Positions 3,043 through 64,000 of a stretch of 64,000 bases of DNA are shown here, piece after piece. Both the position numbers and the translations under genes were made by a program. This DNA comes from Macrostomum lignano (taxonomy: Eukaryota). The stretch is from NCBI GenBank assembly GCA_002269645.1, contig NIVC01000617.1:446274-510273 (forward strand), read 5' to 3'. The stretch's first letter is position 1; every line of letters begins with the position of its first letter. The notes beneath the pieces were generated by a model that did no database searches, was not told the DNA's origin, and saw only the letters and a program-made list of their open reading frames with translations.

Positions 3043-3054
3043 CCCTCCCCTCCT
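3043..3054 (-). promoter_or_regulatory. Polypurine tract
   Basis: Minus strand AGGAGGGGAGGG directly abuts the 3' LTR. Confidence 0.9.
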
Positions 3055-8292: not shown

Positions 8293-8879
8293 CCTTGGCG
8301 AATTCTGACTGGCTCCTCCGTGATATTGATGAGTCGAGTCGGCAGACGGCTGCCGCTATTTGGGATCACTAAGGCCTTAGCAAGCCAGCGGCCAGCTGCC
8401 AAATCGTTCGCCCCGAGATTCTCAGTTAGACCGACACACCCTCTGTTCCGTCGTCCTTTGCTCTCCAGCCTTGCTGACAGAACTGCTTGATGACCTGGCG
8501 GTATTGTGCTGGACCTTGTCGCCAAAATTCTGCAAACGATCGGGCGCTCAGCTTGCCATCGGAACGGGATTGCAGTGTCCTGCACTGAAAAGACAGCTGT
8601 CTTGTAGTCGATGACGCAACTGTTGTCCCTGCAGAAGTCGGATCCCAATACCAGTTGGTACTTCACTCCGCTGACTACCAAGGCTGGAGTATCTATTACT
8701 TTATCAGCGATTGACAGTCGCAACAGGACTGTCCTCTCGATTTCGATCGGGCTGCCGTTTGCTAAGCTAACGTAGCCTTCAGCACCGGCCAAATCTCTGA
8801 CGCTCTGTTTCGGCATACTTTGGTAAGCTTCCCGTGAGATAATGGTGCAGGAAGCTCCCGAGTCCTCTAGCGCGTTCAC
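8265..8879 (-). CDS. Pol: aspartic protease
   Basis: ALEDSGASCTII catalytic motif and LVLGSDF flap motif; the frame is open upstream of the GTG start. Confidence 0.9.
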   Translation of the reverse strand: MNALEDSGASCTIISREAYQSMPKQSVRDLAGAEGYVSLANGSPIEIERTVLLRLSIADKVIDTPALVVSGVKYQLVLGSDFCRDNSCVIDYKTAVFSVQDTAIPFRWQAERPIVCRILATRSSTIPPGHQAVLSARLESKGRRNRGCVGLTENLGANDLAAGRWLAKALVIPNSGSRLPTRLINITEEPVRIRQGCTLGWFCP

Positions 8880-8983
8880 CCTCCGCCCTGCGATTGAGGC
8901 CGTAACATATATCGACGCAGGATTGATTTGAATTGACTGAGGTGCGTTGACGGTGATTGGGCGCTGCGACTGTGCAAAACCGG

Positions 8984-9829: not shown

Positions 9830-10710
9830 GGCTTTGGGCACTGGAATGAGAGATGGCCTATCTCCCCGCAGTTGTAGCACTTGACACCGCTACGCTGCTT
9901 CGAGCTGGACGGAGCCGCCTGCTTGGATTGTTGCTTGTCTTGAAGGCCGGGTTCGGGCGGCTCCTGCTGGCCCTGCTGCATCTGCTCCATCCGTCGGATC
10001 TTTTCTTCCATTTCCTTTACTTTTTGACGCAGTTGGCGTAGCTCCTCGTCTTTGCCGGTGTCACCTGTCGACGTTTCGGTGGCAAAGGCATTCAGCCCAG
10101 CCCTGGGTCTGGCTTTGGACTGGGTCGAAGACGCCTTCTGGGCTGCTTCAAGTTGTCTTACTGTTCGAATGGCATCGGTGAGGTTGGCCGGCTGCTGCAG
10201 GTACAGTCTTTCTCGGACAGTGTCGGTTACTCGAACGCCTTTTAGAAATCTGTCTTTCGCCAGCTCTGTCCTGGTGTCGGCATCCGCGGTGGGGAAGGCA
10301 TTGCGCACCAACTCCAGCAGCTCGTCCCCGAAGGTCTCCACAGACTCCTTGTCTAGCTGATCTCGATTCGATAATTCAAAACGGTAGTCCTGGGCTGTTC
10401 TGTTCATGGTGAACCGCGCCAGTAGTGCATCCGTGAATTCCCCGTACTCGATGTCGTCTGCCAAGTCCAGCTTATCAACGGCAGCGTAGGCTGTTGTGAG
10501 GTCGAGTAGGCCGATCAGGTGCGGCCGCCTGGCTTCTTCTTCTATACCGACAGCCTCGCAGTACTCGTTGAAACTCTGCAGCCATAGGCTGAAATTCATC
10601 GTTGGTATGTACTTGGGCGGCTTCGAGAGTCGTGGCGCTGCTCGGTCGGCGTTGGCTCTGAGGCGCGCAGCCAGCGCATCGATCAGTTGGTCCATAGCTT
10701 GATCACCCAT
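9790..10710 (-). CDS. Gag with CCHC zinc knuckle
   Basis: CYNCGEIGHLSFQC; capsid-like QLDKESVETFGDELLELVRNAFP. Confidence 0.93.
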   Translation of the reverse strand: MGDQAMDQLIDALAARLRANADRAAPRLSKPPKYIPTMNFSLWLQSFNEYCEAVGIEEEARRPHLIGLLDLTTAYAAVDKLDLADDIEYGEFTDALLARFTMNRTAQDYRFELSNRDQLDKESVETFGDELLELVRNAFPTADADTRTELAKDRFLKGVRVTDTVRERLYLQQPANLTDAIRTVRQLEAAQKASSTQSKARPRAGLNAFATETSTGDTGKDEELRQLRQKVKEMEEKIRRMEQMQQGQQEPPEPGLQDKQQSKQAAPSSSKQRSGVKCYNCGEIGHLSFQCPKPGKGKRGPPAGGK

Positions 10711-10934
10711 GGCCGAAGTGACTGAATACCGTTGCTACTCTTTACTCTGAGGTGGTGATAGCTATCGATCTCTGATAACCAATCAGTTGTCTGTCACCGT
10801 GATCAATGTCTTTTGCGGTAGGGCAATAGCCGCAAGCGATAAGCAACAGTCGTTTTAATAAGAAAAAACGCTCACAATATGACAGCAATTTTCATAGAAA
10901 GCAACTGAGCCGACTTTCAATCTTGGGGGACAGT

Positions 10935-10952
10935 GTCCCTGTTCGGGCGCCA
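10935..10952 (-). promoter_or_regulatory. Primer-binding site, tRNA-Lys(UUU)
   Basis: Minus strand TGGCGCCCGAACAGGGAC, 3 nt inside the 5' LTR, matches the known tRNA-Lys3 PBS sequence. Confidence 0.92.
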
Positions 10953-10955
10953 ATT

Positions 10956-11854
10956 TGTTGTAACCCGGGTCGGCTTGGGTGCCCAGTCCCGAGTACAATA
11001 TATATTATATGTGATATAACAGGCGTTGTGACGCTCTGTCTGTACTTTTATGAATACGACGAGCAGGCGTGGCGACGCTCTGCGATAATAATTCGATCCC
11101 TCTGGTGTTGTGACACTCAGAGTTCACGCTGCGGCTCGAGGTGTGGTGACACTCTCGAGTGCTTCTATTCTCTATACCGTAGGGCGTACGCAATATATAT
11201 GGTAAACGGTACCGTACTACAGAAGCTATATGGTCTCCCGGCGTTATGACGCTCTGGCAAGAATTCGGCCTAGCAAGCTTCCCAGAAAGAAAGGACTCAA
11301 ACAGCAGGCGGCTTACCAGTGGCCAGATGACTGTTCACCGTTTATTATTCGCAGGTCTCAAGCGCAGTTTCCGACTTCTTCTTAATTCTCCAAGACTCTT
11401 CTCAATTAGGCTATTGTGTTTCTTTTATCCAAGTAGCTAATGTTGCTGTTTCTTTTATCGAAGTAGCTAATGTTGCTGTTTCTTTTATCAGGTCTCGCGC
11501 TTGCACTCTCGGAGCACACCAAAACACAAAAAGCACGCAGGTGGTGGGCAAGAGCCAGAGTCGCACCATAAATAGCACCCAAACCCTGGGGCAGACGGCC
11601 CCACCGGCTAAGCTCACCAAAACAAACCACGCCGGCCCAGCCAATCAAAACCCCGCCTAAGGGGGGAGGGGCTGCACCCGCGCCAAAGCTGGCCCGGCCG
11701 CAGCCAACCAGCCCTGAGCACGGGGCAGGGGCACGGCTGGGGAGGGGCACGCGCAAAGCCCGGCCGGGGCCAGACCCTGCCACGCCCGCCAACCCCCCCA
11801 ACCAGCCCCAAAGTGCAACGCGCCCTGCCAACTGACAAGGGCGCATGCACTACA
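10956..11854 (-). repeat. 5' LTR
   Basis: Partner of 2144-3042; followed by TSD ATAC. Confidence 0.97.
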
Positions 11855-12236
11855 ATACTACTGCATTACTTATTTAGTTGGCATACACACTGCATGTATC
11901 TATATTCCAAAACGAAAACCCGAAATATAAACTCACTTTCTGGAAAAATCTGCGAATCAATCAGCTCTGTATAATGCATATAGACCCACGCGTACATGTT
12001 CGATCGTTGGAATTCCTTTAAACACTATGCATAATTATAAATATAGGATAAAAATTTGCAACATTGCATTTAAATTTATGCCTTTACACAATTTTTGCCT
12101 TTTGCATGCAAATTTAAATGTTTAATTCCAAATCATACTACTCTGAATACGCAGTAGTATAAACAGAACTACTTTAGCTTGTATATAAAGTTGACAAAAT
12201 ATTTTTTATAGTTTGTATAAAGCTGCATCTCCGATC

Positions 12237-17263: not shown

Positions 17264-17420
17264 TCAGATTTCTGAGGTACCAATTCCATATATCTGAGGG
17301 TATTTACTCTGGCCTGAGCCAAGTAGCAACAGCTGCTGCTGCTGGGGCTGCTGACTGCCACTGACGCCAGTGCGGACAGGTGTGGCCAGTTTCTGATGCA
17401 TCGGGTGCACCTGTTGCTGC

Positions 17421-17453
<33 letters not shown>

Positions 17454-19327
17454 GGGCTTTGTTTGCACCGGAACAGACGAGTCAACTTCTGCTGCCAGGC
17501 TCTGAAAGACTTCCGGTTGAGCCACACAAACAGGCCAGCTGGCAGACCGGGCGCCAGCGACATGAAAATCTTCAACGCGTAGATGGACGGCGACGGTTGA
17601 GCATCGAGTCGACAGCCGTCAGCGGATGTTAGCAGGCCGCTAGAGTTGACGCAGTGAGCTCGAACCAGCAGCTTGTCGACGCTGGCCTGCCACTGGCCCC
17701 GCTCCATGAACTCGTAGACGTTGGCCGCCAGGACGCACGCAGTCGGCAAGGCGAACAGCCCGGAGAAGATGCTGATCTTCGTCATCAACGTCTCCAGGCG
17801 TCTGAAGCTGGGATTACCGTTGAATTTCAGCCGATGTCGGACGGATACGCTCGAGCAGAGCGCGCTGATTAGAAACAGAAAGCCGCAGAGCAGGCTGACA
17901 GCCGCAGGTGCGATTGAGAAGATCAACAGGTTAGTCCGGTCCGACGCGTCAACTACGCACAGGTGCGTGAGCTCGTCCGCCTCGATTCGATGCAGCACTA
18001 ACAGTACAACGCTCAGGACCAGCGGAACGCCCCAAGCGAACACGTGAAGCCACACGGAACGCTGCGCCAAAGCTTCGTGGGCCCATTTTCTCGCTGCGCA
18101 CAAGTACCAGCAGACGGTCATGAGGAGCCACCAGAGACAGCCGGCAGTGGCAGAGAAGTACAACAGCAGGAAGATGACGGCGCACCAGTGGCCGGCGTGA
18201 CGGCTCACCCGGTACAGAGACGGCCCTAGGGCCGCGTCGGTGCCGGACGCGTCGAACCGGTTGCAGGCGACCTGCGGGCCCAGGCCGGCGCGGAGCAGGT
18301 GACCCAGCGAGAAGAGCCCGTAGCAGGCGGCAATCCACACTATGGGCCGTTCGGGGAACAGAAGCCTTTCGCTGTCCATAGCAAATGTGAGCACAGCTAG
18401 CGAGGTGCATGCGAAGCAGAGTATAGCGGAGATGAGCATCCAAATTTCGGCGAAGGCTTTGTCTTTTTTAGTAAACATGAAGTCGGCGTTGCAGCGCTGG
18501 GCGCAGCTGGCGCCGCTGAGATCGGCGCCCAGTCGAACTTCGGCCGGCGTGCACGGCCCGCGAGCCGATCCCGGTGCCTCCGACGTTGGCGACGCTTCGG
18601 TAGGCGGCGTACTCTCGGCCGCTTCAGCTGGCACGAAGTGTCGAGGAGGCTGCGGCAGTTCGTGCTCGTTCATGCCGCCGACTTTGTACGAGTCGCCGCC
18701 AGGCTTGCGCAGCTCCGTCAGCTGCTGCTCAAATTCCTTGGCGTTCGGTCGCAGGCACAGATTCTTCTTGCCGGACTCGGCACTCTGCTCCGGTGGCAGG
18801 CCCTCGCACGCCAGCCCGGCCGGCCACTCGTGTCCGAATCGCAGCAGCATCGGAGTGCAGAGGTCGCGAATTCGTTCGCAGAACTCGCGACACGGCCGAA
18901 CTAGCAGAGACTCCTGGCACATCGGCAGGTGCATCGAGCAGACGAACAGGCGCATGAATGGCGCGCACGGAGCTCTGATGAGATCTTTGTACTGCTTCAG
19001 CACGTAGCCAACATCTACTCCGGATTGCTTGGTGAATACCTCAGCCGTGGTGCTGTAATAATTGTTCTTACAGGTGGGCACCTCGATTTGGGCCGGCACG
19101 CAGGTTTGAGCTGTGCCGTCAAAACCAGAAACTGCGGGAGCCGCCGCCGCAGCTGCCGCCGCAGCCGCCGCAGCCGCAGCAGCCGCAGCCTCCGCGTTTT
19201 CGTCCGGAGCATTAGGAGAAGAATCAGTAGCTGTAATCGCGTCAGTTGATAGTGTCAACAACAGTAAGATTGCTAAGCCGTTTAGACTTTGCCGCCTATT
19301 TGGTGGCGAAGACGTTGCCAACTTCAT
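17264..19327 (-). CDS. fzd: Frizzled Wnt receptor, Fzd4/9/10-like, single coding exon
   Basis: Signal peptide, 10-Cys CRD, 7TM region with PERPI and DELTHLCVV motifs, KSFRAW (KTxxxW-like), poly-Ala and poly-Gln tracts, C-terminal PDZ-type SEI. Confidence 0.95.
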
Positions 19328-45511: not shown

Positions 45512-47422
45512 ATGGCTTTGCCAAGTCGTGCATCAAATAGACAGGTAGCCAGGGAAATGCAAGAAATACTACAAGAGCTTCCGACGATTGGGGCTACAAA
45601 TATTGAGGCTAGGCTAGATCTAGAAAATGTGATGGGACAAAATGAAGATACAAAGAGCAATGCTGAGCCTGAAGAGACATTCTTTGATGCAGTGGGTCCA
45701 ATGCCAATGGACTTTGATAGCCAAATGCATGCTCTTTTTGAGGAAGAAATGGATGAAGAAGTTGAAGAACAAGATGACTCTCTTGGCTATAATAGACCTC
45801 CGCCACTTACTTTGGTGCAAGAGTTACTATTGTTTTACATAACATTCAATATTACTAGTGCTGCCATGAATTACCTACTTCGGCTTTTGGCTCGTTTCTT
45901 CACTGACATACCCACTTCTGTCTACATGCTTAAGAGGCAGTGTCCAAGCACAGAGATCACGAGGTTCAATGTCAATAATGGTCATGTTGCCTTTCTCTCC
46001 ATTGTGGACAATTTGAAATTTTTACTTGATTCCAAAATCCTTACAATTCCATCTGGAATTACAAACTTCTTTGTTTCCTTAAGGGTAAATGTTGATGGTC
46101 TTCCTTTATTCAAGTCATCTAGAATCAATCTTTGGCCTATATTGATGCTAGTAAATAATTGTTTTAGACCTGTGCCATTTGGCCTTTTTTGTGGCATTGG
46201 AAAGCCTGACCTACATGTCTTCTTAGAAAGGTTTTGTTCTGAAATTGCAGGTCTACAGAATGGTTTTGACTATAATATGAAAAGAATTTTTATTAAGTCA
46301 ATTGTCTTTATCTGTGACACACCTGCTAGAAACTTTATTCAATGTTTGAAAGGTCATTCCAGTTATCTTGGCTGTAGTTGGTGTCGTCAAGTAGGAAATT
46401 ACACAGGTGACAGAATTTGTTTTTCTAATACCATTGCAGAGGCTCGAACAAATCAAGATTATGAACAAGGGCGTGAAAATAACCAACTTGGTATTTCTCC
46501 ACTAGCCAGGATTGTTCCAATGTATTCCAATTTTGTACCCGACCCAATGCATATTGTCTACTTAGGGGTTGTAAAGAAGTTGCTCAAATTTTACTTCCTT
46601 GGAGCAAAGCACATTCGACTTGCTTGCAAGTTGTCATCCCAATTAAAAGAGGAAATAAATAGAAAAATAATGTATATTAAGGAATTTGTTCCTTCAGATT
46701 TTCAAAGACGGCTTCGCACTTTTGCTGACATTGAATACTTTAAAGCAACGGAATTCCGCCAATGTCTTTTGTACTTTGGTCCGTTCCTTTTTAAGAATAC
46801 CTTGCCAAAGGTCTACTTTAATCATTATCTATTATTGCATTGGTCAATTTCAGTCCTTAATTCACCTGAGTACTGTGAAATTTATTTTGATGCTGCTGAG
46901 GCTTGTTTGAAAAAGTTTGTTGCTGAGGCACCAAGCCTATATTACAACAGTGTAGTTTCTTATAATTGGCATGCTCTGTTGCACCTTCCTGAGTTTGTGC
47001 AAATGTATGGCCCACTTGACACGTTTTCAGCTTTCCCTTTTGAAAACTACTTGCAATTGATCAAGAAGAGAATTCGTTGTACCAATCATGTTTTTGCCCA
47101 ATCTGTCAACCAGTTGTTGAATGTGAGATTTTTATATTCTAATGACAAGTTGGGTGACATTGGTTTTACTAATAAGAGTCCTAATAACTGTGCTATTGTT
47201 GATGGAAAGGTTGTCATTGTCACCAATTTAAATGATGGTCTTATTTCAGGCCAGGTTCTCACATTTGATAGAAGCCTTTATTCCTATCCATATCCATCAA
47301 AATCAATTGGCATAGGCTACTATAAGCATTCAAAGACATTTGTATCCAACTTGCAACCTTCTAAGAAGGCCATTCTAATTCCCTTTGGCGGAGACTATCT
47401 GGTCATTCCTTGCATCAAGTAA
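45512..47422 (+). CDS. EnSpm/CACTA-type transposase
   Basis: NVDGLPLFKSS..LWPI, FICDTPAR..GH..Y.GC..C, DPMH...LGV, KATEFR..LLY.GP, YNWHALLH....GPL..FSAFPFEN. Confidence 0.93.
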   Translation: MALPSRASNRQVAREMQEILQELPTIGATNIEARLDLENVMGQNEDTKSNAEPEETFFDAVGPMPMDFDSQMHALFEEEMDEEVEEQDDSLGYNRPPPLTLVQELLLFYITFNITSAAMNYLLRLLARFFTDIPTSVYMLKRQCPSTEITRFNVNNGHVAFLSIVDNLKFLLDSKILTIPSGITNFFVSLRVNVDGLPLFKSSRINLWPILMLVNNCFRPVPFGLFCGIGKPDLHVFLERFCSEIAGLQNGFDYNMKRIFIKSIVFICDTPARNFIQCLKGHSSYLGCSWCRQVGNYTGDRICFSNTIAEARTNQDYEQGRENNQLGISPLARIVPMYSNFVPDPMHIVYLGVVKKLLKFYFLGAKHIRLACKLSSQLKEEINRKIMYIKEFVPSDFQRRLRTFADIEYFKATEFRQCLLYFGPFLFKNTLPKVYFNHYLLLHWSISVLNSPEYCEIYFDAAEACLKKFVAEAPSLYYNSVVSYNWHALLHLPEFVQMYGPLDTFSAFPFENYLQLIKKRIRCTNHVFAQSVNQLLNVRFLYSNDKLGDIGFTNKSPNNCAIVDGKVVIVTNLNDGLISGQVLTFDRSLYSYPYPSKSIGIGYYKHSKTFVSNLQPSKKAILIPFGGDYLVIPCIK

Positions 47423-52172: not shown

Positions 52173-52437
52173 AGTAGTGGAGAAAAAGACGAGTACAGAC
52201 CCAGAGCACTTTTTTAATGACCGTTTTAAGGGTCTAGAGGGGGGACACGGGGGGTAAATAAAAAAAACACATCTAATCACCATTAACACAAAAAGACATC
52301 TAAAAACCCCCTAACAATAAAAATCATTCCCAACACTTCCAAACACTCCCCAACACTCCCCTCGCGTCCCCCCTCTAGAACCTTATAAACGGCCATTAAA
52401 AAAGGTCTGATCTGTACTCGTCTTTTTCTCCACTACT
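52173..52437. repeat. Terminal fold-back: 27-bp perfect, ~80-bp imperfect inverted repeat
   Basis: 52173-52199 AGTAGTGGAGAAAAAGACGAGTACAGA is the exact reverse complement of 52411-52437; similarity extends to about 52255 and 52355. Confidence 0.92.
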
Positions 52438-52534
52438 ACACATCCCAACACTCCCCAACACTTCTAACACTTCCAATTCTCTATAACCCCTCGCCCGCGC
52501 CGCAGGCGCGAAGGGTCTTTTTCTGTTATAAAAA

Positions 52535-52849
52535 ATGAACCGAGTTTACACCTTTTCTGTTAGTGATACTTTTGAGACTGTTGCTAAAAATGCAGAGATA
52601 ATAAAACAACATATTTTGAATGGAATAATTGATGAAGTTTATTTAAAATATGACGACAAGCACGACCTAAAACTTTATCCATTAGAGCTAGATGAGATGT
52701 ATGATTTAGAACAAGAGGGTGAGTTAATATTTCAACTTGGAGATTATTTAAATTCGGATGATTGGGAGGTTAGATCAACAGATTCCGAATCAACAAATAG
52801 TTCATATGAAACCAGTGATTCAGAGAATGAAAGTGAAATTTTTATGTAA
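52535..52849 (+). CDS. Polinton small acidic protein, unknown function
   Basis: 104-aa ORF with AAAAAATG start; similar to the next ORF. Confidence 0.65.
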   Translation: MNRVYTFSVSDTFETVAKNAEIIKQHILNGIIDEVYLKYDDKHDLKLYPLELDEMYDLEQEGELIFQLGDYLNSDDWEVRSTDSESTNSSYETSDSENESEIFM

Positions 52850-52852
52850 AAA

Positions 52853-53083
52853 ATGGAATTATTTAACAGACCCCACTTTTCAATAGTTGAATCAACTCAA
52901 ACAATATTTAATGCACTTGATTCAATAAAAAAATTAATAAAGGATGAAATACTAGACGAAGTATATATATTTCCATACATAAAGATATATCCGCTTGAAA
53001 TTGGAGAATTAGAGTATATTTGGGATAAGGGGGAGCAAAGTCTTCTTTTAGCACAATGTTTAAATTGTGAAAAAAATATTTAA
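52853..53083 (+). CDS. Polinton small protein, paralogue of the preceding ORF
   Basis: Shares IK..I...I.DEVY...K.YPLE..E with 52535-52849. Confidence 0.6.
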   Translation: MELFNRPHFSIVESTQTIFNALDSIKKLIKDEILDEVYIFPYIKIYPLEIGELEYIWDKGEQSLLLAQCLNCEKNI

Positions 53084-53086
53084 AAA

Positions 53087-53311
53087 ATGAACTATTATTC
53101 TATAACAGAAACGACATTTATTGTGAAAAATATATATAAAAAAATGAAGGTAAACTATTCCTACATCGGAAATGTGCCGGTTAATGAACTTAATCAAAAT
53201 TTAAGTCTAATCACTGTTGAACAAATGTCAATAATAATATTAGTAACAATAATAGTAATAATATTGTTTTTGTTTGTTATAAAAAATTTACTACCCTGTT
53301 GCCTTAAGTAA
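53087..53311 (+). CDS. Polinton small membrane protein
   Basis: C-terminal hydrophobic stretch IIILVTIIVIILFLFVI. Confidence 0.6.
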   Translation: MNYYSITETTFIVKNIYKKMKVNYSYIGNVPVNELNQNLSLITVEQMSIIILVTIIVIILFLFVIKNLLPCCLK

Positions 53312-53321
53312 TTGTTCAAAC

Positions 53322-54936
53322 TTAGTTTGCAGATAATATCTGATTCTCATAAAAAGAACCCAATATTTCTTCACCATCCTTATCAGCAATTATATAGGTT
53401 GTAGGATTTGTATTTAAAACTTTACTGATGGTAAATTTCTCACTTATTTTCCAATATCCTTTTCTTCCTTTTTCAAACTTATCTTTCCATTTATAGATAT
53501 AAACAGAATCACCAACCTTAAAAGATTTCTTTTTAGTTTTATTTTTTTCAAATTTTCCAAAAGTAACTTTAACGTTATCAGGATTGTTATAAGCTTGTTG
53601 AGGAGCCATCTTTATGGTCGAATGATATGAATTGTTATAATCTTTTACAACGTCTGGTAATATTTTTACCCACTTTTGGTTACCATTAAGACTAAACTGA
53701 AACCACAATTTCTTACCTAAAGTTCGATTAAATCTTTCTATTAATGCGTTTTTACTTTCTCCATAAATAGAATAAATTTTATTAATATACTCCCCATTCG
53801 CGTCTTTTTTCCTTTCTTGTCCTTTTTCAAAATTATATAATTTATACATATGAGGATTGTAAAATTCTTTTCCCTCATCAACACACAACCGTTCACTTTT
53901 TTCTCCAAGACTTCTAAAAGCAGCAGCAACCTCCTCTCCCTTTTTGGATTTTAAAGGAACAGCCCACGCGTATCGAGTAAAACCATCTAATATGGTTAAG
54001 ATATATTTATATCCTCTTTCGTTCGGCATCGACATTAAATCAGCATACCAAATTTCATTCTTTTTGAAGTTCATGATTTTTCTATAAAATTTCGGTTTTC
54101 GATATTCTTTATGAAGAATCTTTGCCTCATCAGAACTTAACCCACCACCACTTAATAATAAACACTCGACACAATTATTTCCATGTTGGTTGTAATTAAT
54201 TCCCAAACCAAATTTAACTTTAGACTGCAAGATCTTTTTAACCATCCACCTAGTTAATCTTTGCCCTACCGATAATCCCTGCAAGTTATCTAATCCTTGA
54301 ATCATTTTTTGATCGGCTTCATGTTTTAATCTTAATGCTTCCTCGGGCGGGTTCTTGTCAGCATCTCTATATGCTAAGTCGTGATAGTATGCTAACCAAT
54401 CAATCCCATTTATTGGAATTGAATCAGCTTTTGGAGTATTGTCAGGATTTAATCTTAAATCCAAACGAGTGCCGGGTAGTTTACCCCCAATCTTTCGAAT
54501 GAGGCTGGAGCACACCTTAAGCGGATAAATTACCGCCCATCTCCGTCTGCTCTCTGAACCTTCTCCTTATATTTAAATACTTAGGAGCTTGGCTGCGCAT
54601 TGCCACCATGTCTTCAAGCTTTTTACCATTGGGAAGAGGAGTTACCTCTGTTCCTTCAAAAGATTTCTCAATTGAAGTGGTACTTGAAGCTGTATGACGG
54701 GTTTCACGCAATTTGGAGACATCGCCACTAATAGTGACTAGCAGTAGCTTTGCTTCTACCACTCAGGCCACGGGATAACCTGTGAAGTTCATTGATGGCA
54801 GGTGTAGCTCACCCGTATACCTCCCAGTAGTAAATATTGGTGGTAAGCTTGTTAATCCTTTTTGAACATCTAACAATCCTCCTTCAAATACTAATTGGTC
54901 GAACCTTCGGTTCGCATGCGTCGCATGATTGCTCAT
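53322..54936 (-). CDS. PLA2-integrase fusion in two exons (54936-54778, 54476-53322), 437 aa after splicing
   Basis: Joined reading GELHLPSMNFTG|PGTRLDLRL...DWLAYYHDLAY...ADQKM (parvovirus-type PLA2), then an rve DDE core (WYADL, CVDEGKEF, IERFNRT) and an SH3-like tail. Confidence 0.88.
54477..54777 (-). ncRNA. Group I intron ribozyme, IC1-like, 301 nt, no internal ORF
   Basis: Hand-folded P1 with U.G at the splice site, P2, P2.1, P3 GUCUCC/GGAGAU, P4 UGCGUG/UGCGCA, P5abc with A-rich bulge and GAAA loop, P6/P6a with CCUAAG/UAAGG receptor, P7 G-A-GAGCA/UGCUCC, P8 GGGCGG/CCGCUU, P9.0 and P9 with GAAA loop. Confidence 0.9.
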
Positions 54937-55483
54937 TTTTTATAGCCTTAAAAATACATGATAGCACCAATTGTTTTGCAAATTCTTCAATTGTTGGTTG
55001 TTTAACAAATTTAGTTTTATTATCAATAGCAGCTAAGTATCTTTTATTTGTCCAATGTTCAGACTTTTTCATATGATCTTCGTCTTTGTAATTAAATGAA
55101 GAAGCAGGAATAAAATGATCAATATGTAAAGCACCACCATAGTCTTTTGGAACATAATAATGTTTTGTGAAATTTAACCAATCAATAAAGAATTCAATTG
55201 AGCAACCAAGGTAATCAATAGTATGATTATTTTTTTGAGCATTATTTGATTTTAATAGTTGATTTATTCTATTTCGTGAGGTGATAATAAGTTTGTAATT
55301 TTCATCAGTGTGATATTTATTTTTTATATATTCTTTATTGTTTTTATTCCAAAGTTTTGATATAACTTTCTCACAAGATCGACAATCATTTCTAAATTTT
55401 TTTGAATCATTTCTCCATCTAAAAAAATCTTTAGTCATTGGTTTCTCTTCTTTACATCGACTACAAATCTTTTTAGTTTCCAT
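54884..55483 (-). CDS. Free-standing HNH (beta-beta-alpha-metal) endonuclease with N-terminal zinc finger
   Basis: CSRC...CRSC N-terminus; LHIDHFIP...HWTN...L...DNKTK resembles HNH proteins of large DNA viruses and phages. Confidence 0.78.
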   Translation of the reverse strand: METKKICSRCKEEKPMTKDFFRWRNDSKKFRNDCRSCEKVISKLWNKNNKEYIKNKYHTDENYKLIITSRNRINQLLKSNNAQKNNHTIDYLGCSIEFFIDWLNFTKHYYVPKDYGGALHIDHFIPASSFNYKDEDHMKKSEHWTNKRYLAAIDNKTKFVKQPTIEEFAKQLVLSCIFKAIKNEQSCDACEPKVRPISI

Positions 55484-55510
55484 TTTATAAAAAATAAATT
55501 TAACAATTAA

Positions 55511-56188
55511 TTAAACACCAGTATGTCCAGCAGCTTTCGCAGCAGCTAATACAAGTTTTCTAGGAGTTTTAAATCCTTCACCAACAGCTGGTTTGTTATT
55601 TATAGAAATAATAATTCTTTTATACAAACTTGTATTTTTAACAGCTCCTCCTAACTCATCATAAAAAATTTTTGCACTTACTAATTCATCCCTAGTATAT
55701 AAATCCGGGTTAAATTTTACCCTAGGGTTCATAATAATATTATATGCTCCACCCAATTCTGTATATAGTTCATTTCGATCTTTATCAACGTTACCAATTC
55801 GATAATTATTATTACCTAAATCTGTAACAGCAATACTAGGTGGTACTCTTGGAAATTGTTGCCGATCAACTCCATCCCTAATCTCTTCAGCCCTAATCTC
55901 TATAACTCTCAATTGTGCTTGAGCAACACCATAAGCAGGCGGCTCATCATCCAAAATTTCATCCTCTTTTGGCTCAGTATTTTTAGCAATTTTTTCCAGA
56001 AGGTCTTTATCTGTTTTTTCTAGTTCACTAATTTTCCCCGTAATAGGATTAACAAAAGGAGCAGCAAATTTTTCACCAGCTAATTGTATTCCTAACTTTC
56101 TTTTTTGTAAATTTCTAACAAAATCAGAATATCTTTGCTTCTCTTTATAAATCGCTAACTCTCCATCAACGTCCATAAATTGACTCAT
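55511..56188 (-). CDS. Polinton protein, unknown function
   Basis: 225-aa ORF with AAAAAATG start, divergent from the major capsid gene. Confidence 0.7.
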   Translation of the reverse strand: MSQFMDVDGELAIYKEKQRYSDFVRNLQKRKLGIQLAGEKFAAPFVNPITGKISELEKTDKDLLEKIAKNTEPKEDEILDDEPPAYGVAQAQLRVIEIRAEEIRDGVDRQQFPRVPPSIAVTDLGNNNYRIGNVDKDRNELYTELGGAYNIIMNPRVKFNPDLYTRDELVSAKIFYDELGGAVKNTSLYKRIIISINNKPAVGEGFKTPRKLVLAAAKAAGHTGV

Positions 56189-56222
56189 TTTTTAACATAA
56201 AAAACTTTTTTAACTTAAAAAA

Positions 56223-57695
56223 ATGGCTGAAACAAAAACTATGTGGAGTGATAAATTTCATTTCAAAAAGCACCGACAGTATATTAATGAGGTCAGAGCA
56301 AGAGATTTAAATTATACCCTACCAACAAGTGATAATTCAAATAACTTTACTACTGGAACGGTAACTTTTGACATCGGCGCAACCAACACTATATTGGATA
56401 TGAAAAATGCATTTTTCCGTGTTAGATGGTTGTATACTAGAAATGATGGAACTGCTCTTGCAGCCGGAGATATCGCAGATCGATCCGGAATAATAATAGA
56501 AAATGATTGGTTTTATAAATGTTTTTCCCAAGCTCAACTAACTGTTAATGGTGCTGAGGTTGAGACATCATCAAACCCCGCAGAGATTAATGGAGTTTTG
56601 AAACATTTAAATTATACTTATTTATCAAAACAAGTTGGTGATAATGTTGGGTGGATGCCGGATAAAGGTAACGGTCAAGCAGTAGTTTTCCCTAATGTAC
56701 AAAACGCAGCTGGTGCAGATACTGCAGCTCTAATTGTTTACCTTAATACCAATATAGTTCCAGTTGTAACCCCTATGACTAATACAAAAGCTATTAACAC
56801 CGGTTTTATAGATCGTCAGAATAAATTCCCAGTCGCGGTTTTAACCACAGCAACAGCATATGAGCAGGACTTTTCAATCTTTCCACTATTTGGGTTTTTC
56901 TCACCAAATCGGGTATGGAAAGGATTAAAATTTGGGATACAGTTGCAAATATCTGGTGGATATCAGCCTAGGATACTTTATGGAACCTCAATTTCAACCG
57001 ATATAGCAGTTCGTATAGATTCAATTCAATTAGTCGTACCAACTATTGAGGTAACAGCCCCACTTTTAAAACACATCGATAATCAGTTAACGCATGATCA
57101 GGAAATATTTTATTTGAATCGTAGACACTTTATGCGAACCATTAATAACAATCAGGATTCATTCCAGTGGCAAATACTGACATCAAAACGTCGGGTGAGA
57201 TATATTTTTGTTTGGTTTAAGATAACAAATAGAAGGAGTAAAAGAGCAAATGGGGATTTATATTGGCTTCAATCCGGTGCCATAGCAGAACAAGCAGCCA
57301 CCGCAACAGACAATGCGGCTGCAGCTATTAACGAGTTTAATGTTCAGAATATCCGCCTGCAGGTTGATGATCAATATTATCCGGTTAAAGACCCCCTAAA
57401 TTTAAATATAGCAAATAATGATGTTAATGATTTTATAAAATATTATCAAGATTATGCCAAAAATGAAGCATATGCCGTCCCTCAGTACACACCCACAGAG
57501 TTTCTAAACATCCATCCAGTGGTTGTTTATGATCTAACGGCACAGAAAGAAAACATAGCCAATATTGGACTTAATTATATGTTAGAGATTAATAAAACCG
57601 GTAATCAGGCAATCGACGCCCACGTATTGTTTCTAGAGGAATATATGTCAATTGCTAAAGCTGATGGCACGGTTGTTCGGGACGCGCCACTTTAG
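56223..57695 (+). CDS. Major capsid protein (double jelly-roll, PY-like)
   Basis: 490 aa, beta-rich, FSQAQLTVNGAEVE motif, located next to the ATPase and penton genes. Confidence 0.8.
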   Translation: MAETKTMWSDKFHFKKHRQYINEVRARDLNYTLPTSDNSNNFTTGTVTFDIGATNTILDMKNAFFRVRWLYTRNDGTALAAGDIADRSGIIIENDWFYKCFSQAQLTVNGAEVETSSNPAEINGVLKHLNYTYLSKQVGDNVGWMPDKGNGQAVVFPNVQNAAGADTAALIVYLNTNIVPVVTPMTNTKAINTGFIDRQNKFPVAVLTTATAYEQDFSIFPLFGFFSPNRVWKGLKFGIQLQISGGYQPRILYGTSISTDIAVRIDSIQLVVPTIEVTAPLLKHIDNQLTHDQEIFYLNRRHFMRTINNNQDSFQWQILTSKRRVRYIFVWFKITNRRSKRANGDLYWLQSGAIAEQAATATDNAAAAINEFNVQNIRLQVDDQYYPVKDPLNLNIANNDVNDFIKYYQDYAKNEAYAVPQYTPTEFLNIHPVVVYDLTAQKENIANIGLNYMLEINKTGNQAIDAHVLFLEEYMSIAKADGTVVRDAPL

Positions 57696-57778
57696 TGTCG
57701 CAGTGCAAAGCACGTCGCCCCCGCTGTAAGCGGTGCAGGTCTCCGACCGTCGCGCCTATTTAAATTATTTCTTTAAAA

Positions 57779-58543
57779 ATGGTAAAGGCAAAACACGATA
57801 AGATATTTCCAAATGATCCTTTTCTTTGTTTAGTAATCGGTGGATCAGGTAAAGGAAAAACACACTTTGTTTACGATTTATTAACAACAGATGGAATGTT
57901 AGACTATAATAATTTAATAATTTATACTAACAAACCTAGAATAAAATATTATGAATTTCTTAAACATGGATTAAAAAACAAATTAAAAAAAGATGTCTTG
58001 TTTAGAATGTTAAGAGCATATGAGCAATATGAGGATGATGACGAACCGCGATTTACACTCGATGACATTGAGGATTTATGTAAAACAATGGCACAACAAC
58101 CAGAAAACATCACCGAACGAGCCCCAACTGTTAGAGTATCAACCCGATTAGCCTATGATCAAATTCCAAAACATGATAAAACACTAATTATTTTTGATGA
58201 TTGTATTAATGACGGTGATCAAGAATTGCAAAAGGAAATTTTTGTTAGTGGTAGAGGAGATGGAATTGGAGCTTTTTATCTAACACAGTCCTTTAGAGAA
58301 TTAGAATCGATTATAAAAAAGAATGCAAGTTGTTGTGTAATGTTTGATTTAGATAATTATGATTTACAAAATATACACGCTAGATTTAATCCTGGGTTGG
58401 ATGCAAAACCATTTAAAAGTATGTGTAAAAAAATTTGGGATGATAGCCAATACAAACATATTTATATCAATCCGAGGTTAGAAAGGAAAAATCGAATCTT
58501 AAAAGATCTTATAAAAGAAGACGATGAGGAAGAAGAAGAATAA
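57779..58543 (+). CDS. A32/FtsK-like packaging ATPase
   Basis: Walker A GGSGKGKT, Walker B LIIFDD, SGR, LTQS. Confidence 0.93.
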   Translation: MVKAKHDKIFPNDPFLCLVIGGSGKGKTHFVYDLLTTDGMLDYNNLIIYTNKPRIKYYEFLKHGLKNKLKKDVLFRMLRAYEQYEDDDEPRFTLDDIEDLCKTMAQQPENITERAPTVRVSTRLAYDQIPKHDKTLIIFDDCINDGDQELQKEIFVSGRGDGIGAFYLTQSFRELESIIKKNASCCVMFDLDNYDLQNIHARFNPGLDAKPFKSMCKKIWDDSQYKHIYINPRLERKNRILKDLIKEDDEEEEE

Positions 58544-58557
58544 TTCCCACTATAAAA

Positions 58558-59343
58558 ATGGCTACAAATTTAGATACTATAAAACAATTGGTAGATCGAA
58601 CTAATTCAAAATTTAGTACAACATTACAGTTTATAATGACAACCAGTGAACAACGTATTCAATTGCGCGATCCGTTACAACTCGATCAAAGCCTAAGTTA
58701 TCAAATAGGTTTAATACTATTTTCGGTTTTCAACATGCCTCAATTAATTAATGCAACAAATAATCAATTTAGATATTCTAAAGATTCCGGAGCCAATTGG
58801 ACAACATTTAGCGTTAACCCAGGAGCATATTCTTATACCGATTTGAATGCTTATATAGAAGGAGAATTAACATCTAACGGCGATTGGGTAGCAGGCGCAA
58901 TTGTTATAGGTGTTGATTTACCATCTGGCAGATTCACACTATCACTCGAATCCGGATATCAGGTTGATTTCACAATTGCAAATTCACTCAGAACCATACT
59001 TGGATTTAATTCCCGAATAGTTACCACATCAAGCACCGGTGATACAGTTGGAAATATAGAGGGCGGAGTAAATACAATTAATATAACAACCGACATTTCA
59101 AACGGTGGTTATATAACAGACGATAACGGAGTTTTGGTTCAACGTGGAATTATTTATTCAATCCCATTTCTTGCTGTTCCAATTGGAGAGAAAATGATTG
59201 TATCACCTCAAACCCCAATATATTACCCATTAAATCAATATAATGTTCAATCAATTTATATTAGGATTGTAGATGAAAGCGATAGATTAATAAGTTTTGG
59301 TGGGCAGTCAATAACAATAATTTTACGGATAAAACAGGTTTAA
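58558..59343 (+). CDS. Minor capsid protein (penton, PX-like)
   Basis: NNQFRY...PGAY...N, LRTILGF, IIYSIP...P.GEK...P...YYP, SIYIRIVD...I.F.G pattern. Confidence 0.85.
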   Translation: MATNLDTIKQLVDRTNSKFSTTLQFIMTTSEQRIQLRDPLQLDQSLSYQIGLILFSVFNMPQLINATNNQFRYSKDSGANWTTFSVNPGAYSYTDLNAYIEGELTSNGDWVAGAIVIGVDLPSGRFTLSLESGYQVDFTIANSLRTILGFNSRIVTTSSTGDTVGNIEGGVNTINITTDISNGGYITDDNGVLVQRGIIYSIPFLAVPIGEKMIVSPQTPIYYPLNQYNVQSIYIRIVDESDRLISFGGQSITIILRIKQV

Positions 59344-59387
59344 TCGTTCCGAAGGAACGCGGACTTTGTCCGTTTCCTATAGTAAAA

Positions 59388-59567
59388 ATGGGTAATAATA
59401 ATAATAATTTACTAAAAAAACAATCAGAAAAAGTTAAAAAAGCTGAAGATAATTACGAACTAGAACTAGCAAAATTAAGGCAGTTACAAGCTGATAAAAT
59501 AAGAAAGGAATTGTTAAAACCCACACCTACTAAACTAACTAAAACCAAGAGTTTTTCAGGAACATAA
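59388..59567 (+). CDS. Small basic 59-aa ORF absent from the ORF track
   Basis: Manual translation MGNNNNNLLKKQSEK...SFSGT-stop; AAAAATG start; fills the gap between the penton and protease genes. Confidence 0.55.
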   Translation: MGNNNNNLLKKQSEKVKKAEDNYELELAKLRQLQADKIRKELLKPTPTKLTKTKSFSGT

Positions 59568-59568
59568 A

Positions 59569-60066
59569 ATGACCATGACGTGGGATGATTTTAAACAACG
59601 ATATGGAACAGACACAACAAGCAATATCGAATTAACAAATTGGGCGCGGCAGTTAAAAATAAAACCATTTAGATGTGTTATGCGGGATGAGATAAAAGAC
59701 TTACCACAATATGGATCTTTCATTGTTAATATTGAAACAACAAAAGAAAATGGTGTTCATTGGTCAGCAGTTTATTCAAAACCAAAACTTGTTTATTTTT
59801 TTGATTCATACGCGCTTCCTCCGTTACAGGAAATAAAAGATAAATTTAATCATACTAAAAATCGTTTATGTGGAGATTATCACGAACAATTTCAAACATT
59901 TGATAAAAGTTATTGCGGGCAAGCGGCGTTGTATTTTTTATATAAAATTAATAACTCGAAGGAAACCCCCGAAGTATTTAAGATGATCATGCAAAGCATG
60001 CGTGCCGATGGCACGATCGGACGGAGTGCGCGAACCTTCGGTTCGATTTTAGACTCTATAAAATAG
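59569..60066 (+). CDS. Adenain-like cysteine protease
   Basis: GVHWSAV, YFFDSYA.PP, Q.....YCGQ catalytic pattern. Confidence 0.92.
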   Translation: MTMTWDDFKQRYGTDTTSNIELTNWARQLKIKPFRCVMRDEIKDLPQYGSFIVNIETTKENGVHWSAVYSKPKLVYFFDSYALPPLQEIKDKFNHTKNRLCGDYHEQFQTFDKSYCGQAALYFLYKINNSKETPEVFKMIMQSMRADGTIGRSARTFGSILDSIK

Positions 60067-60076
60067 ACAGTAAAAA

Positions 60077-62113
60077 ATGTTATTTTCTGGAACACCCTCA
60101 TGGAACGGAACATCAAGTACTGGTGGTGGTACTTCTGGTGGAATAAGTGTTACATTCGGAGATAACCGATATATTAATGAAGATGAAGGTTATAAAAAAA
60201 GTGAAGTTGATACTAAACTAAATTTAAAAAGAAATGTTGCAGATTCCTATACCAAAACTCAAATAGATAATTCCCTAAATTTAAAACGGAACGTAGCCGA
60301 TTCATATACAAAAACAGAGGTTGACAATGGGTTAAATTTAAAAAGAGATATAACTGATTCTTATTCTCGAACTCAAATAGATGATTCATTAAATTTAAAA
60401 CGCAATACGGCCGATTCTTATACCAAAACTGAAGTTGATAATTCCCTAAATTTAAAACGGAATGTTGCTGATTCCTATACCAAAACTGAAGTTGATAATT
60501 CCCTAAATTTAAAAAGAGATATAACTGATTCCTATACCAAAACCGAAGTTGATAATTCCCTAAATTTAAAAAGAGATATAACTGATTCTTATAGCAAAAC
60601 TGAAGTTGATAATTCCTTAAATTTAAAAAGAGATATAACTGATTCCTATACCAAAACGGAGGTTGATAATTTAGTTGGGGGTGGAGCCCCAAAACAAGAT
60701 CGATTCCAAACGGTTGAAACCGGACACGTACCAACTATGGCAGCTTGGAGTGGAAATGGTTTTGCAATATCCGCAAACACAGCATTTAATACAACTGATT
60801 TTGCAAGTTGGAAAGCGTTTGATGGAAATGATTCAACAGATTGGGCAACAAATAATACTCAAACCGATTATTGGATTCAAGTCCAATGCCCTTCCGCAAT
60901 AATGTGTTATAAAATTGATTTACGTGGTAGGCCATCACCTTCAACCGAGCACCCAGCATCATGGCGATTTGAGGGAAGTAATGACAATACAAGTTGGGAC
61001 GTATTAATACCTGCGGATAGTTCTGTAGCAATAAATAACTCAACTCAAACAATTAATGTCACACAAAATTTTGATAAAACATATTCATATTTCAGATTGT
61101 TCTGTCTTACATCAACTCGGGTTCAACCAACCCGGGTCTGTCAACCTTCCAGATTTATAGACAGACGTTTACAATTCTTGATTTAAATTTGGGAGTGGTT
61201 AATCAATCAATTGATATGGGAGGTAATACAATTACTAATATCTCTACTATAAACAATAACAGTTCTGTTGTTACTAAAGGTTATGTTGATACGCGAGTAA
61301 CACAAACGGCGGATGGCCGAATGTCTTTTAACGATAAAATAAAATTGGATGGAATACCTGCAATCGATGCCGCTTTGTACGAGCCTGTATTTGCAATTGG
61401 ACTGGATATCAAAACCCAACCACAGCCGGTGATATTTTTCCAACTGGAAGTTTTGTTGGTAGCGCTACTTATATTGATTATCAAAATGGAGCCAGAATTA
61501 CTGATGAAGCAAGTGGTCAGTCTGGAGCGTTGCAATTTAATTTCACCCATTTTCGTAATATCTCCGCCTCCTTCTATTTCCGAGTTGCTAATGCTACAGG
61601 AAGTGGTGCTGATGCGGTTTGGTTTTATGCATATTGTCACGAACGTCCAACAAGTGAATTTGGATCCGGGTTAACAACCCGCGCCGGCTTGATTGTGTTT
61701 GCGAGTGAATGGCATGATAGAGTTGGGGTTGTTTGGAGCAATATAAAATCAGACGGTGCAACAGCTCGTAATGATGTTCTTAATGACGCAGATCAAACTA
61801 TAACTATGCTAATATTGATAACGGCGATTGGCATCTTTTGAATTAATATTTTAAATCAAAGAGTTTGGTATCAAATAAGCACATACAATGTATCAGCTAA
61901 TACATATACGCTAATTGGGCAAAACTTTTTACATATGAAGTGGAACTTGGGGAGATTTAGATAAAACGGGAACCTTATGGTTTTGGTGCTCGAACTGGAG
62001 GAGCAGATGCCGCACATTTTATTCGTGGTGCAGCCGTTTGTGGTAGCACATCAGCAGGATATGATTTTGCTGCGACCGCATATTTGGAACGGCCACAAAC
62101 CGAAATCGCCTAA
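60077..62113 (+). CDS. Fibre/spike-like protein with several frameshifts: shaft repeats, discoidin-like and L-type lectin-like domains
   Basis: 19-aa SYTKTEVDNSLNLKR(D/N)xxD repeats; AWKAFDG...W..EGSND domain. Alternate frames continue SGSTNPGLSTFQIY, GSGADAVWFY, DNGDWH and GFGARTGG..AHFI to TAA at 62111-62113. Confidence 0.7.
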
Positions 62114-62556
62114 GCTAAAGCTAAGTCGCGAACCAAAAGGTTGATACCTTAAATATTTCTATATAAAATGGCTTTTAGTAGAATCCTCGATGCGGCAAAT
62201 AATGTTATTATTCTATTCCTAAACAAGAATCAATATAAAAACATTCAAATCTCATACCAAATTTTTATTTAGTACTGTAAATGTTCAGGATAATAAAGAA
62301 CTTCAAGAATTAATTAAATTGTTAAAAATCATATTATACTTCAAGAGTTTTGGAAATAGGATTTAAATGGGAGAAAAAAAAGAATCACTCCAATACAATA
62401 CCTATTAAGCTCCGGGCAAATACCCCAAAGAGCGTGGGAATTCATTTTGGTGTATTAAAAATAGACGAGAATGTCGGTATCTGAAGCAGATAAATGGGAA
62501 CGCGACGGTTCAACCAACGTAAAGGTCAGATGTTAAGTAATGTTGATCGATAAATT

Positions 62557-62994
62557 ATGATTATGATTTATATGCTAAAAAGTAAGAAGAGTTTCAAACC
62601 ATATAAGAAATATGGATTTTTCAATATTGGATTTGGAAGCTTATCAATGTTATGTGTAATCGTTTTAGGTATTTTACAATCTATTCCAACTCTTAATTTA
62701 TCTCAATTATTTTTAGGTATTTCAATTGGCTCAATATCAGGTTTTGAATTGATCAGGAACTTATCAATACTTTTAGCAATTAAATTATATCTTAAAAAAA
62801 GAAAGGAAAAATATAAATCTTTAAGAGATGTTGCAAAACAATATAAAAATCAATTATATTTATATGTGCAAAAAATATTGGATGATGGAGAGATAACGAT
62901 TCATGAATTATCAACCGCGGTTGAATTATATGAAAAATATTTAAAAGATAGAAATAGAATTTTGATGTTGAAACTTTTACCGATATGGAATTGA
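62557..62994 (+). CDS. Polinton two-TM membrane protein (resembles the adintovirus GasderminX-type ORF)
   Basis: Two hydrophobic segments, then K..KY.....A......L...VQKILDDGEIT..E.....E.YEKY. Family assignment is from memory, not a search. Confidence 0.5.
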   Translation: MIMIYMLKSKKSFKPYKKYGFFNIGFGSLSMLCVIVLGILQSIPTLNLSQLFLGISIGSISGFELIRNLSILLAIKLYLKKRKEKYKSLRDVAKQYKNQLYLYVQKILDDGEITIHELSTAVELYEKYLKDRNRILMLKLLPIWN

Positions 62995-63208
62995 AGGAAT
63001 TGCGTTTGGACAAACCCAAAGCTCCACTATAGATACATTAGGTATTTACGAACCGAAACTATTGTAGAACTTCAGGTTGTTTAGTTTTTCTAATGCATAT
63101 GTTATATATTCTTCCCAAAGTGGTAACTCTCTTCTGATCCTAGGTTTAAATTTTTTATCAATACATAAAAATTCCAATGACTTTTTCAATAACATTTCGT
63201 TAGGTATG

Positions 63209-63559
63209 TTACCTATCCTTATAAACTTTGTATTCTCTCGAATAAGAAAATTGAAATAATATCCAACTAAAATTAAAATCCTTTCGGTCTTTCGAACTTA
63301 ATCCCTTTCCTTTATTTAAATGGAAAAAGTTATTATATAAATAAACATTATTTCCGGGAATTAAAATTGGATTGGAAATGTCTCTTGTAAGATTTCTTAA
63401 AATTGTGTTTTTAAAATAGTAATATGAGTTTTCAATCTTTTTTATTTTTTCAAATTGATATATTTTAGAACATGAATAACACATATGATATATATCTCCG
63501 TTGCTGTTTGCTCTGTGCATAGTCACATTACATTTATTACAAACATAAATGTCTTTCAT
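63209..63559 (-). CDS. Small zinc-ribbon protein
   Basis: CNKC...CYSC pairs; A-run before the ATG. Confidence 0.45.
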   Translation of the reverse strand: MKDIYVCNKCNVTMHRANSNGDIYHMCYSCSKIYQFEKIKKIENSYYYFKNTILRNLTRDISNPILIPGNNVYLYNNFFHLNKGKGLSSKDRKDFNFSWILFQFSYSREYKVYKDR

Positions 63560-64000
63560 TTTTTTGTTATTTTTTTAGATTAAAAATGGAGAGCTGGTTC
63601 AAAACCGATTCTAATGTGATTAATTATCTCACACCCAATATGTTGGAGAATAAAGAATATAATATTATATGTTTGAGACAGGTTAAATTTATTGGGCTTC
63701 AATCATATTTTTACAATTAGATGGGAAAAAATTTTATGTCTAAGCGGAGATGATGTTAAAAATTTTCCTTTTTAGTTATTAATAAACCAAAAGCGTTTGT
63801 TATGAAATACAGTATGAGGGTGGGTTGCAATTTAAACTAAAACAACAAAAAATAAAAAAGAGTGATAGGACTGTAAAATTGGCTTCGGTTGGGAGGATGA
63901 CCGAATAAGTTTAAATTTTTTATAAGAAAATGGAGACATCGTGCAAAGCACGCGTATCGATGATACGATAAAAATCCTTATCACTAAAGAGGCGCGAACT

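Follow-up and report, generated by a model that had tools for sequence, protein, structure and literature searches.

Group I introns in protein genes of endogenous virus-like elements have been reported from the Polinton-like viruses of three protists, the Rhodomonas lacustris cluster C3, Paulinella and Desmodesmus (PMC12220804). They are RF00028 introns of about 300–380 nt, as is the intron described here, but according to the accessible part of that report their hosts are protists, they interrupt a 50-aa ORF that precedes the capsid gene, they were found by scan only, and neither a nuclease link nor a site purge is described. Giant viruses also carry such introns, for example in polr2a/b of Bodo saltans virus, and interference with intron-less rivals has been proposed for them (PMC5871332). 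These share the ribozyme type and occur in nuclease-bearing and ORF-less forms. In the accessible text, however, their enzymes are of the HNH and GIY-YIG types and not of a type II restriction family, and the virus is a cytoplasmic virus of a protist that is not integrated in animal chromosomes (PMC5871332).

In phages, collaborative homing is known (Zeng 2009 and Bonocora and Shub 2009, both as cited in PMC11296320; also treated in 10.64898/2026.10.13.758929), and the intron nuclease gp210 of PhiPA3 has been shown to cause interference between phages (PMC11620839). As far as the accessible parts of these sources go, a free-standing nuclease beside an ORF-less intron, intron-encoded forms and competition between co-infecting elements are common to the phage systems and to ours, whereas the phage enzymes are long-site enzymes acting in bacteria, and here both arrangements and two nuclease families meet at one locus of a eukaryotic integrating virus. 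Eco47II is listed as a bacterial restriction enzyme (PMC3424549), and its homologues have been tied to GGNCC (PMC10305163). Judged from the accessible parts of the papers, the Eco47II-family enzymes (PF09553) and the chlorovirus systems resemble the nucleases described below in their PD-(D/E)XK fold, family match and probable GGNCC target (PMC3424549, PMC10305163, PMC7019647). In contrast to them, ours comes with no linked C5 methylase and is intron-encoded, and protection apparently consists of site loss plus the intron.

Among animals, the accessible part of a 2025 database of 42,459 group I introns has such introns only in placozoans, corals and sponges, mostly in mitochondria (PMC11835236). 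Like ours, these lie in an animal protein gene, and ND5-717 is also found without a terminal G (PMC6545197); they are mostly of type IB4, whereas the intron described here is nuclear, virus-borne, IC1-like and present in more than 100 copies (PMC11835236, PMC6545197, as far as accessible). The accessible texts of four animal Polinton papers describe no such intron (10.1101/2023.08.22.554363, PMC8502044, PMC11071296, PMC11131425). In the open-access literature we found neither a group I intron in animal nuclear DNA nor an Eco47II-type intron nuclease. The initial annotation had supposed the phenomenon to be undescribed; this stands for the setting in animal chromosomes within that literature, but not for Polinton-like elements at large, for which protist cases are known (PMC12220804, accessible part). 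What is newer lies in the nucleases and in the GGNCC purge.

The window, that is the whole 64,000-nt stretch of Macrostomum lignano DNA that was analysed, contains, of the two ends of a Polinton, only the left one, and the contig stops inside the element at 64000, before PolB. In eight sister copies (on contigs C3469, C506, C2140, C2506, C3109, C4889, C955 and C166) PolB (PF03175) lies about 9–11 kb from the intron site. The features of the element in the window are as follows:

52173–52437, plus strand: Polinton left end, starting with AGTAGT and folding back on itself (inverted repeats, one of 27 nt and perfect, one of 45 nt at 78%)
52174–64000, no strand: Polinton part of the window, free of GGNCC (none in 11,827 nt, up to the contig end at 64000)
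53322–54476, minus strand: exon 2 of the PLA2-integrase gene, 384 codons starting with Pro, with the rest of the parvovirus-type PLA2-like domain and the rve integrase
54477–54777, minus strand: group I-type intron of 301 nt without an ORF, with IC1-like periphery and A as its 3' base (RF00028, helices, covariation, intron-less alleles)
54778–54936, minus strand: exon 1 of the PLA2-integrase gene, 53 codons, the last one Gly (colinear with intron-less alleles)
54884–55483, minus strand: free-standing HNH/endonuclease VII-like ORF overlapping the start of exon 1 (phrog_1035, E 2.4e-11)
56223–57695, plus strand: major capsid protein, double jelly-roll (low-confidence model, pLDDT 52)
57779–58543, plus strand: A32-type packaging ATPase (PF04665, 30.1 bits, cut-off 22.8)

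The integrase domain PF00665 (rve) reaches 31.9 bits in the window, with a cut-off of 32.6 (E 1.6e-7), and 39.5 bits in the second intron family described below. PF08398 scores 18.9 bits on exon 2 alone, and 33.4 and 35.4 bits on two intron-less alleles. The top fold matches of the capsid model, whose pLDDT is 52, are the capsids of Sputnik, an iridovirus and mavirus. The stretch 59569–60066 has no relevant Pfam match; by its motifs it may encode an adenain-like protease. The ORF at 60077–61186 is fibre-like, with repeats of 19 residues and an F5/8 type C domain at its C-terminal end. Unlike a plain terminal repeat, the left end of the element forms an inverted repeat in its own right (52173–52437 in the window; 357–457 in locus L025).

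The search with Rfam RF00028 that the initial annotation had proposed gave a match at 54787–54486 on the minus strand, with 64.1 bits and an E-value of 6e-16 in a scan of 651 nt (gathering cut-off 50 bits). The same program missed the intron when it was given 64 kb or 20 kb, which we put down to filtering, and this blindness on long inputs may be why genome-wide surveys overlook such introns. The insert falls between the Gly and Pro codons of the PLA2-integrase gene, and an in-frame TGA is its fifth codon. Five of ten fetched stretches were intron-less, reading an unbroken F/Y-A/T-G-P-G-T, and a motif search yielded 23 intron-less alleles in the same genome. Because these alleles read uninterrupted Gly-Pro-Gly-Thr, the ends of the intron are 54777 and 54477. 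The 301-nt insertion in the PLA2 motif, its in-frame stop and the intron-minus alleles that were to be looked for are thereby all borne out. The G at 54486, where the RF00028 model ends, was considered as 3' splice site and rejected: it would add three residues missing from every intron-less allele, and it falls inside P9 and costs P9.0.

A full group I core had been claimed for this insert, and we found P1, P2, P2.1, P3, P4, P5, P5abc, P6, P7, P8, P9 and P9.0 all to pair at the positions given. The folding z-score is -2.89, and none of 100 shuffles was equally stable. Across 13 aligned homologues of 59% to 99% identity (one short locus left out), 92.7% of the cells pair, a figure lowered by four P5c pairs that stand one column off in the alignment, and two-sided changes occur in 31 of the 96 pairs. 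In the control, with the partners slid by 1–3 columns, pairing was 39–48% with 4–11 two-sided pairs. Covariation is located in P2, P3, the P5 extension, P6a, P7 and P9. The parts of the fold are:

54764–54782, minus strand: P1, exon 54782–54778 paired with guide 54768–54764, with U.G at the 5' splice site (13/13 homologues)
54724–54763, minus strand: P2 and P2.1; four P2 pairs change on both sides, and the P2.1 loop is the position of the nuclease ORF in the relatives L025 and L096
54559–54710, minus strand: P4–P6 domain, including P5abc, an A-rich bulge and a GAAA tetraloop whose presumptive receptor lies in P6a/b (pairing, covariation)
54507–54554, minus strand: P7 (54552–54548 with 54512–54508), 3' strand of P3, and P8
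54477–54506, minus strand: P9.0 (54506–54505 with 54479–54478), P9 hairpin with GAAA loop, and the terminal A at 54477

The U.G of P1 and the compensatory P7 had both been claimed beforehand and hold up: in P7, three of five pairs change on both sides, the first two are invariant in 13/13 homologues, and the guanosine-binding G-C pair is intact and invariant (13/13). P9.0 pairing supports the 3' end at 54477. P10 had been called plausible; by eye, four of its five pairs form, and it is weak. Characteristic features of IC1 introns are P2.1, P5abc with an A-rich bulge, and a GAAA loop with its receptor, and a P9.1/P9.2 extension is typical of them. The former set is present in the window intron, with a presumptive receptor motif in P6a/b. 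P9.1/P9.2 is absent from the window intron, which has only 8 nt after P9 (the 3' part is longer in L096), so the earlier label is kept as IC1-like and dropped as IC1. We are practically certain that this is a real group I-type intron. Some introns of the two families (L064, L067, L089, L025) have a 30-nt insert between P5c and P5a, and a hairpin-like sequence akin to it also occurs near the start of exon 1 in contigs assembled from sequencing runs.

Copies of the intron with 93–100% identity were found at no fewer than 40 places on 40 contigs, and exon 2 has at least about 130 close matches; these counts are lower bounds, as 40 of 173 and 150 of 510 candidates were scored. More than 100 contigs carry copies of the element, and some of these contigs approach 1 Mb. 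Wnt genes stand on contigs with intron copies, in one case (C952) 23 kb from the intron, and in the window a Frizzled gene is located 33 kb from the left end of the element. The presence of a Polinton-borne group I intron in an animal nuclear genome, as claimed initially, is thus upheld. Prospero-type genes are a bilaterian marker, and the 764-Mb assembly contains both Wnt and Prospero-type genes; mir-124, sought as a marker of lineage, gave no match, nor did its control. Moreover, the window stretch recurs in 19 runs of 6 studies under one organism label (one of the studies may be the source). The window contig does end inside the element, as a mis-join might; given the copies on large contigs, one copy near a Wnt gene, and the recurrence of the stretch across studies, contamination is very unlikely. 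The spliceosome might be imagined to remove the insert, as a GT precedes the 5' splice site by two bases and seven AG acceptors are in frame. This was rejected: the four stop-free acceptors would leave 26–30 surplus residues in the PLA2 loop. Spliceosomal removal, contaminant and mis-join together are scarcely credible.

To our knowledge, the terminal G of group I introns is near-universal. The last intron base of the window copy is A (54477) where the canonical base is G, a point that the initial interpretation, otherwise supported, had omitted along with the associated nucleases and the GGNCC purge. Among the 39 of 41 family-1 loci that could be parsed for it (two left out), family 1 being that of the window, the terminal base is A in 26 and G in 13. 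It is G in 28/28 copies of family 2 and in L096. The G-ending alleles are group I introns, and the window copy is an IC1-like, A-ending, non-canonical variant.

That the family splices is very probable, and the A-ending copy of the window, too, rather probably does so. In A-ending copies pN/pS is 0.05 over the first 57 codons of exon 2, before the first Met, and 0.32 over exon 1. Such low values might also reflect selection on G-ending or intron-less backgrounds, with recombination afterwards. This touches on a tentative alternative that concerns the window copy and its A-ending sisters: they would splice poorly or not at all, travelling as passengers through recombination and helped in trans, with only the G-ending copies active. 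It draws on the rarity of other terminal bases, on the uniform G of family 2 and L096, and on the mosaic nature of the copies, in which the same intron occurs with different exon-1 haplotypes. Set against it, most copies end in A; these are found on several exon haplotypes and with introns of two lengths, and in most of them exon 2 still has 381–387 codons. In vivo, exon ligation by a coral intron that lacks the terminal G is exact, although less efficient (PMC6545197, accessible part). The passenger alternative is also compatible with a shield at the DNA level. Contigs of four presumed-RNA runs contained no joint across the intron and bridged its borders; such contigs show presence, not absence. 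Intron diversity is 0.045, as compared with about 0.16–0.25 at fourfold exon sites in six of seven bins and 0 in one bin. We looked for a co-conversion gradient, and there was no dip of diversity beside the intron.

The RF00028 search of the genome revealed family 2, with 28 copies at the same site and scores of up to 91 bits. Its host gene is 58% identical to that of the window (about 50% for exon 1), and its introns are 836–895 nt long and all G-ending. An ORF of at least 200 codons, sitting in the P2.1 loop, is kept in 16 of the 27 fully parsed introns (one of the 28 loci lacks a parsed 5' end). An unrelated metagenome contig of 1755 nt (L096) has a G-ending intron at the same site of a PLA2 gene. 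This intron holds an HNH/EndoVII-like ORF, with an in-frame stop, that is 28% identical to the HNH-like ORF of the window. Elsewhere, the introns closest to that of the window come from giant viruses, where they interrupt capsid and RNA polymerase genes; one in a capsid gene is 59% identical to the window intron. No relative turned up when viral contigs were scanned by protein, and the matches in the phage collection were limited to four of 47 nt.

Close relatives of the window intron were seen on giant-virus contigs (L092 and L094 from IMG/VR, and L095), which have four RF00028 matches within 20 kb in the major capsid gene and a tandem pair in an RNA polymerase gene. A third intron type occupies the same Gly|Pro site at L080, L081 and L082 (genome G000, contigs C1307, C103 and C87), with RF00028 scores of only 32–33 bits. 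It has P2/P2.1 and P5abc in common with the window intron and differs in P3, P4, P6 and P7. It was present in 3/3 checked of 24 exon-2 matches that start at residue 3, where the exon-2 frame is offset at the start. It looks like a core swap between two ribozymes.

Nuclease genes of two types occur both inside and beside the intron. The family-2 intron ORF matches RE_Eco47II (PF09553) with 30.1 bits (cut-off 25.9). A free-standing protein 65% identical to it, which at 21.7 bits stays below the PF09553 cut-off of 25.9, is encoded directly upstream of exon 1 in 34 other family-1 copies; in the window, this upstream slot holds the HNH/endonuclease VII-like ORF. In 34/34, the free-standing Eco47II-like gene lies 453–519 nt from exon 2, a spacing that implies the presence of the intron between them. 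A free-standing nuclease adjoining an ORF-less intron is the collaborative-homing arrangement, and it is present here. Eight homologous nucleases from other samples, among about 157 screened, run into the same intron core. HNH-like genes are found as neighbours more often, with 128 matches versus 113 for Eco47II-like ones. Intron-less alleles stand beside an Eco47II-like gene in 0/34 cases and beside an HNH-like gene in about 3/90, a difference that is not significant (p 0.56), and no contig has both one of the 23 intron-less alleles and an Eco47II-like match.

A structural model of the Eco47II-like nuclease (pLDDT 88.7, from 11 sequences) has its best match in EcoO109I (Z 9.6, rmsd 3.9, 167 residues aligned), the only one with Z of at least 8 among 48,161 chains. 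EcoO109I (TM 0.61–0.67) and AvaII are among the first seven Foldseek rows; the best Foldseek E-value belongs to DdmD, which is not a restriction enzyme, and a PDB sequence search with the nuclease profile returned nothing significant. EcoO109I recognises RGGNCCY and AvaII recognises GGWCC. Family membership and the modelled fold indicate that the target of the nuclease is probably GGNCC. For C5 methylases (PF00145) there were 12 matches on 9 contigs, none together with an element match, and one distant homologue of the nuclease (P0047) is fused to a C5 methylase.

Gly-Pro codons always spell GGNCC. In the Polinton part of the window this sequence occurs 0 times in 11,827 nt, where codon shuffles of the element's genes expect 10.3 ± 3.1 (none of 2000 reached 0) and a stricter Markov null expects only 6.0. 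It is the most depleted of the 16 palindromic 5-mers, and the 3076 residues of the element's proteins include no Gly-Pro dipeptide. Other parts of the window served for comparison: the host flank has 86 sites versus 97.8 expected, and the observed and expected numbers are 14 and 21.2 in a gypsy element, 13 and 8.2 in Frizzled, 3 and 3.0 in a transposase gene, and 3 and 3.0 in an AT-rich stretch. Since host DNA keeps GGNCC, integrated copies must keep the nuclease silent, or its action must be confined to a lytic phase. Of 50 family-1 loci, 49 are without any GGNCC; in family 2, nine of 28 loci have 1–2 sites, mostly in flanks or decayed copies. In both of the two intron-less copies examined, the sole GGNCC in 5.5 kb is the intron insertion site. 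The insertion site by itself is not special, since GGU/CC is also where a group I intron of coral mitochondria is inserted (PMC6545197, accessible part).

These observations can be brought together in one scheme, which we hold to be the best explanation overall and, with moderate confidence, probably correct. A giant-virus-type mobile group I intron would have invaded the PLA2-integrase gene at a conserved Gly|Pro, which is a GGNCC site. The ribozyme would splice the transcript, so that the protein retains Gly-Pro while the DNA loses GGNCC. The Eco47II-like enzyme would cut GGNCC without a methylase partner, and its carrier would be spared in that all other GGNCC sites have been purged and the last, protein-constrained one is masked by the intron. 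When two elements replicate in one cell, an intron-less one would be cut once, at the insertion site, and would then either disappear or be mended with the intron-bearing copy as template (homing). The window copy would represent the ORF-less shielded form with an HNH-like gene in the upstream slot. Splicing and cleavage are what we infer; fold, site, copies, nuclease genes and purge are what we observed. The combination of a GGNCC nuclease with shielding, taken for itself, seems slightly more assured than the whole scheme. Several findings count against the scheme, among them that the sequenced part of the window's element has an HNH-like gene and not an Eco47II-like one, that 23 intron-less alleles persist in the genome, and that there is neither a co-conversion dip nor significant exclusion of intron-less alleles (p 0.56). 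So do the prevalence of A-ending copies, the sub-cut-off Pfam score of the free-standing protein, the lead of DdmD in Foldseek, the lower expectation under the Markov null and the low GGNCC count of a giant-virus contig without this nuclease. A stronger form, in which an animal virus has made a five-base restriction enzyme a methylase-free weapon of homing and competition and has cleared GGNCC from its entire genome, to the point of shunning Gly-Pro in its proteins, and ribozymes with two cores, one of them often A-ending, hide the last site by splicing RNA polymerase II-type transcripts in an animal nucleus at more than 100 loci, falls somewhat short of an even chance in our estimate.

Ordinary homing by long-site endonucleases, either HNH-like or Eco47II-like with a longer site, would account for the intron and leave the purge to another cause, such as the restriction enzyme of a helper or competing virus. 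The prevalence of HNH-like neighbours and the HNH-like ORF inside the L096 intron speak for it, as does a giant-virus contig without this nuclease that is also GGNCC-poor (6 versus 12.9); giant viruses are reported to carry restriction systems (accessible parts of PMC7019647 and PMC12220804). Nevertheless, three lines of evidence, independent of one another, single out one 5-mer: the assignment in Pfam, the structural match, and a complete purge that only the insertion site has survived. Moreover, an HNH-like gene stands beside three intron-less alleles and so does not act against that site. We consider ordinary homing unlikely. More improbable still is that the nuclease serves mainly to destroy host DNA in the lytic phase, as in chloroviruses, whose restriction enzymes are thought to degrade host chromatin (PMC7019647, accessible part); site avoidance and the intron would then protect the element itself, and homing would be a side effect. 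In its favour, host DNA does keep GGNCC at the expected rate. However, about two thirds of the family-1 copies are without the gene, still GGNCC-free and mostly intron-bearing, which fits pressure from rival elements, and the location of the gene inside the intron fits self-spread. Host destruction is compatible with the methylase-free GGNCC nuclease shielded by the intron, and differs from it in the main target.

With more than 100 chromosomal copies, group I splicing of mRNA in an animal nucleus becomes testable, and the rule of the terminal G can be tested directly on alleles that naturally end in A or in G. If the nuclease link is true, a restriction-enzyme family joins the homing endonucleases, and site loss plus an intron in place of methylation would be a new form of self-immunity. 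It is also implied that these Polintons meet and recombine as co-replicating viruses.

Outside the Polinton, the gypsy element used for comparison extends over 2100–11900 of the window, with gag, protease, RT and integrase between two near-identical LTR-like repeats, and a DnaJ-domain ORF is found inside it at 3735–4715. The Frizzled gene at 17264–19327 is intronless, and the transposase-like ORF at 45512–47422 encodes 636 aa.
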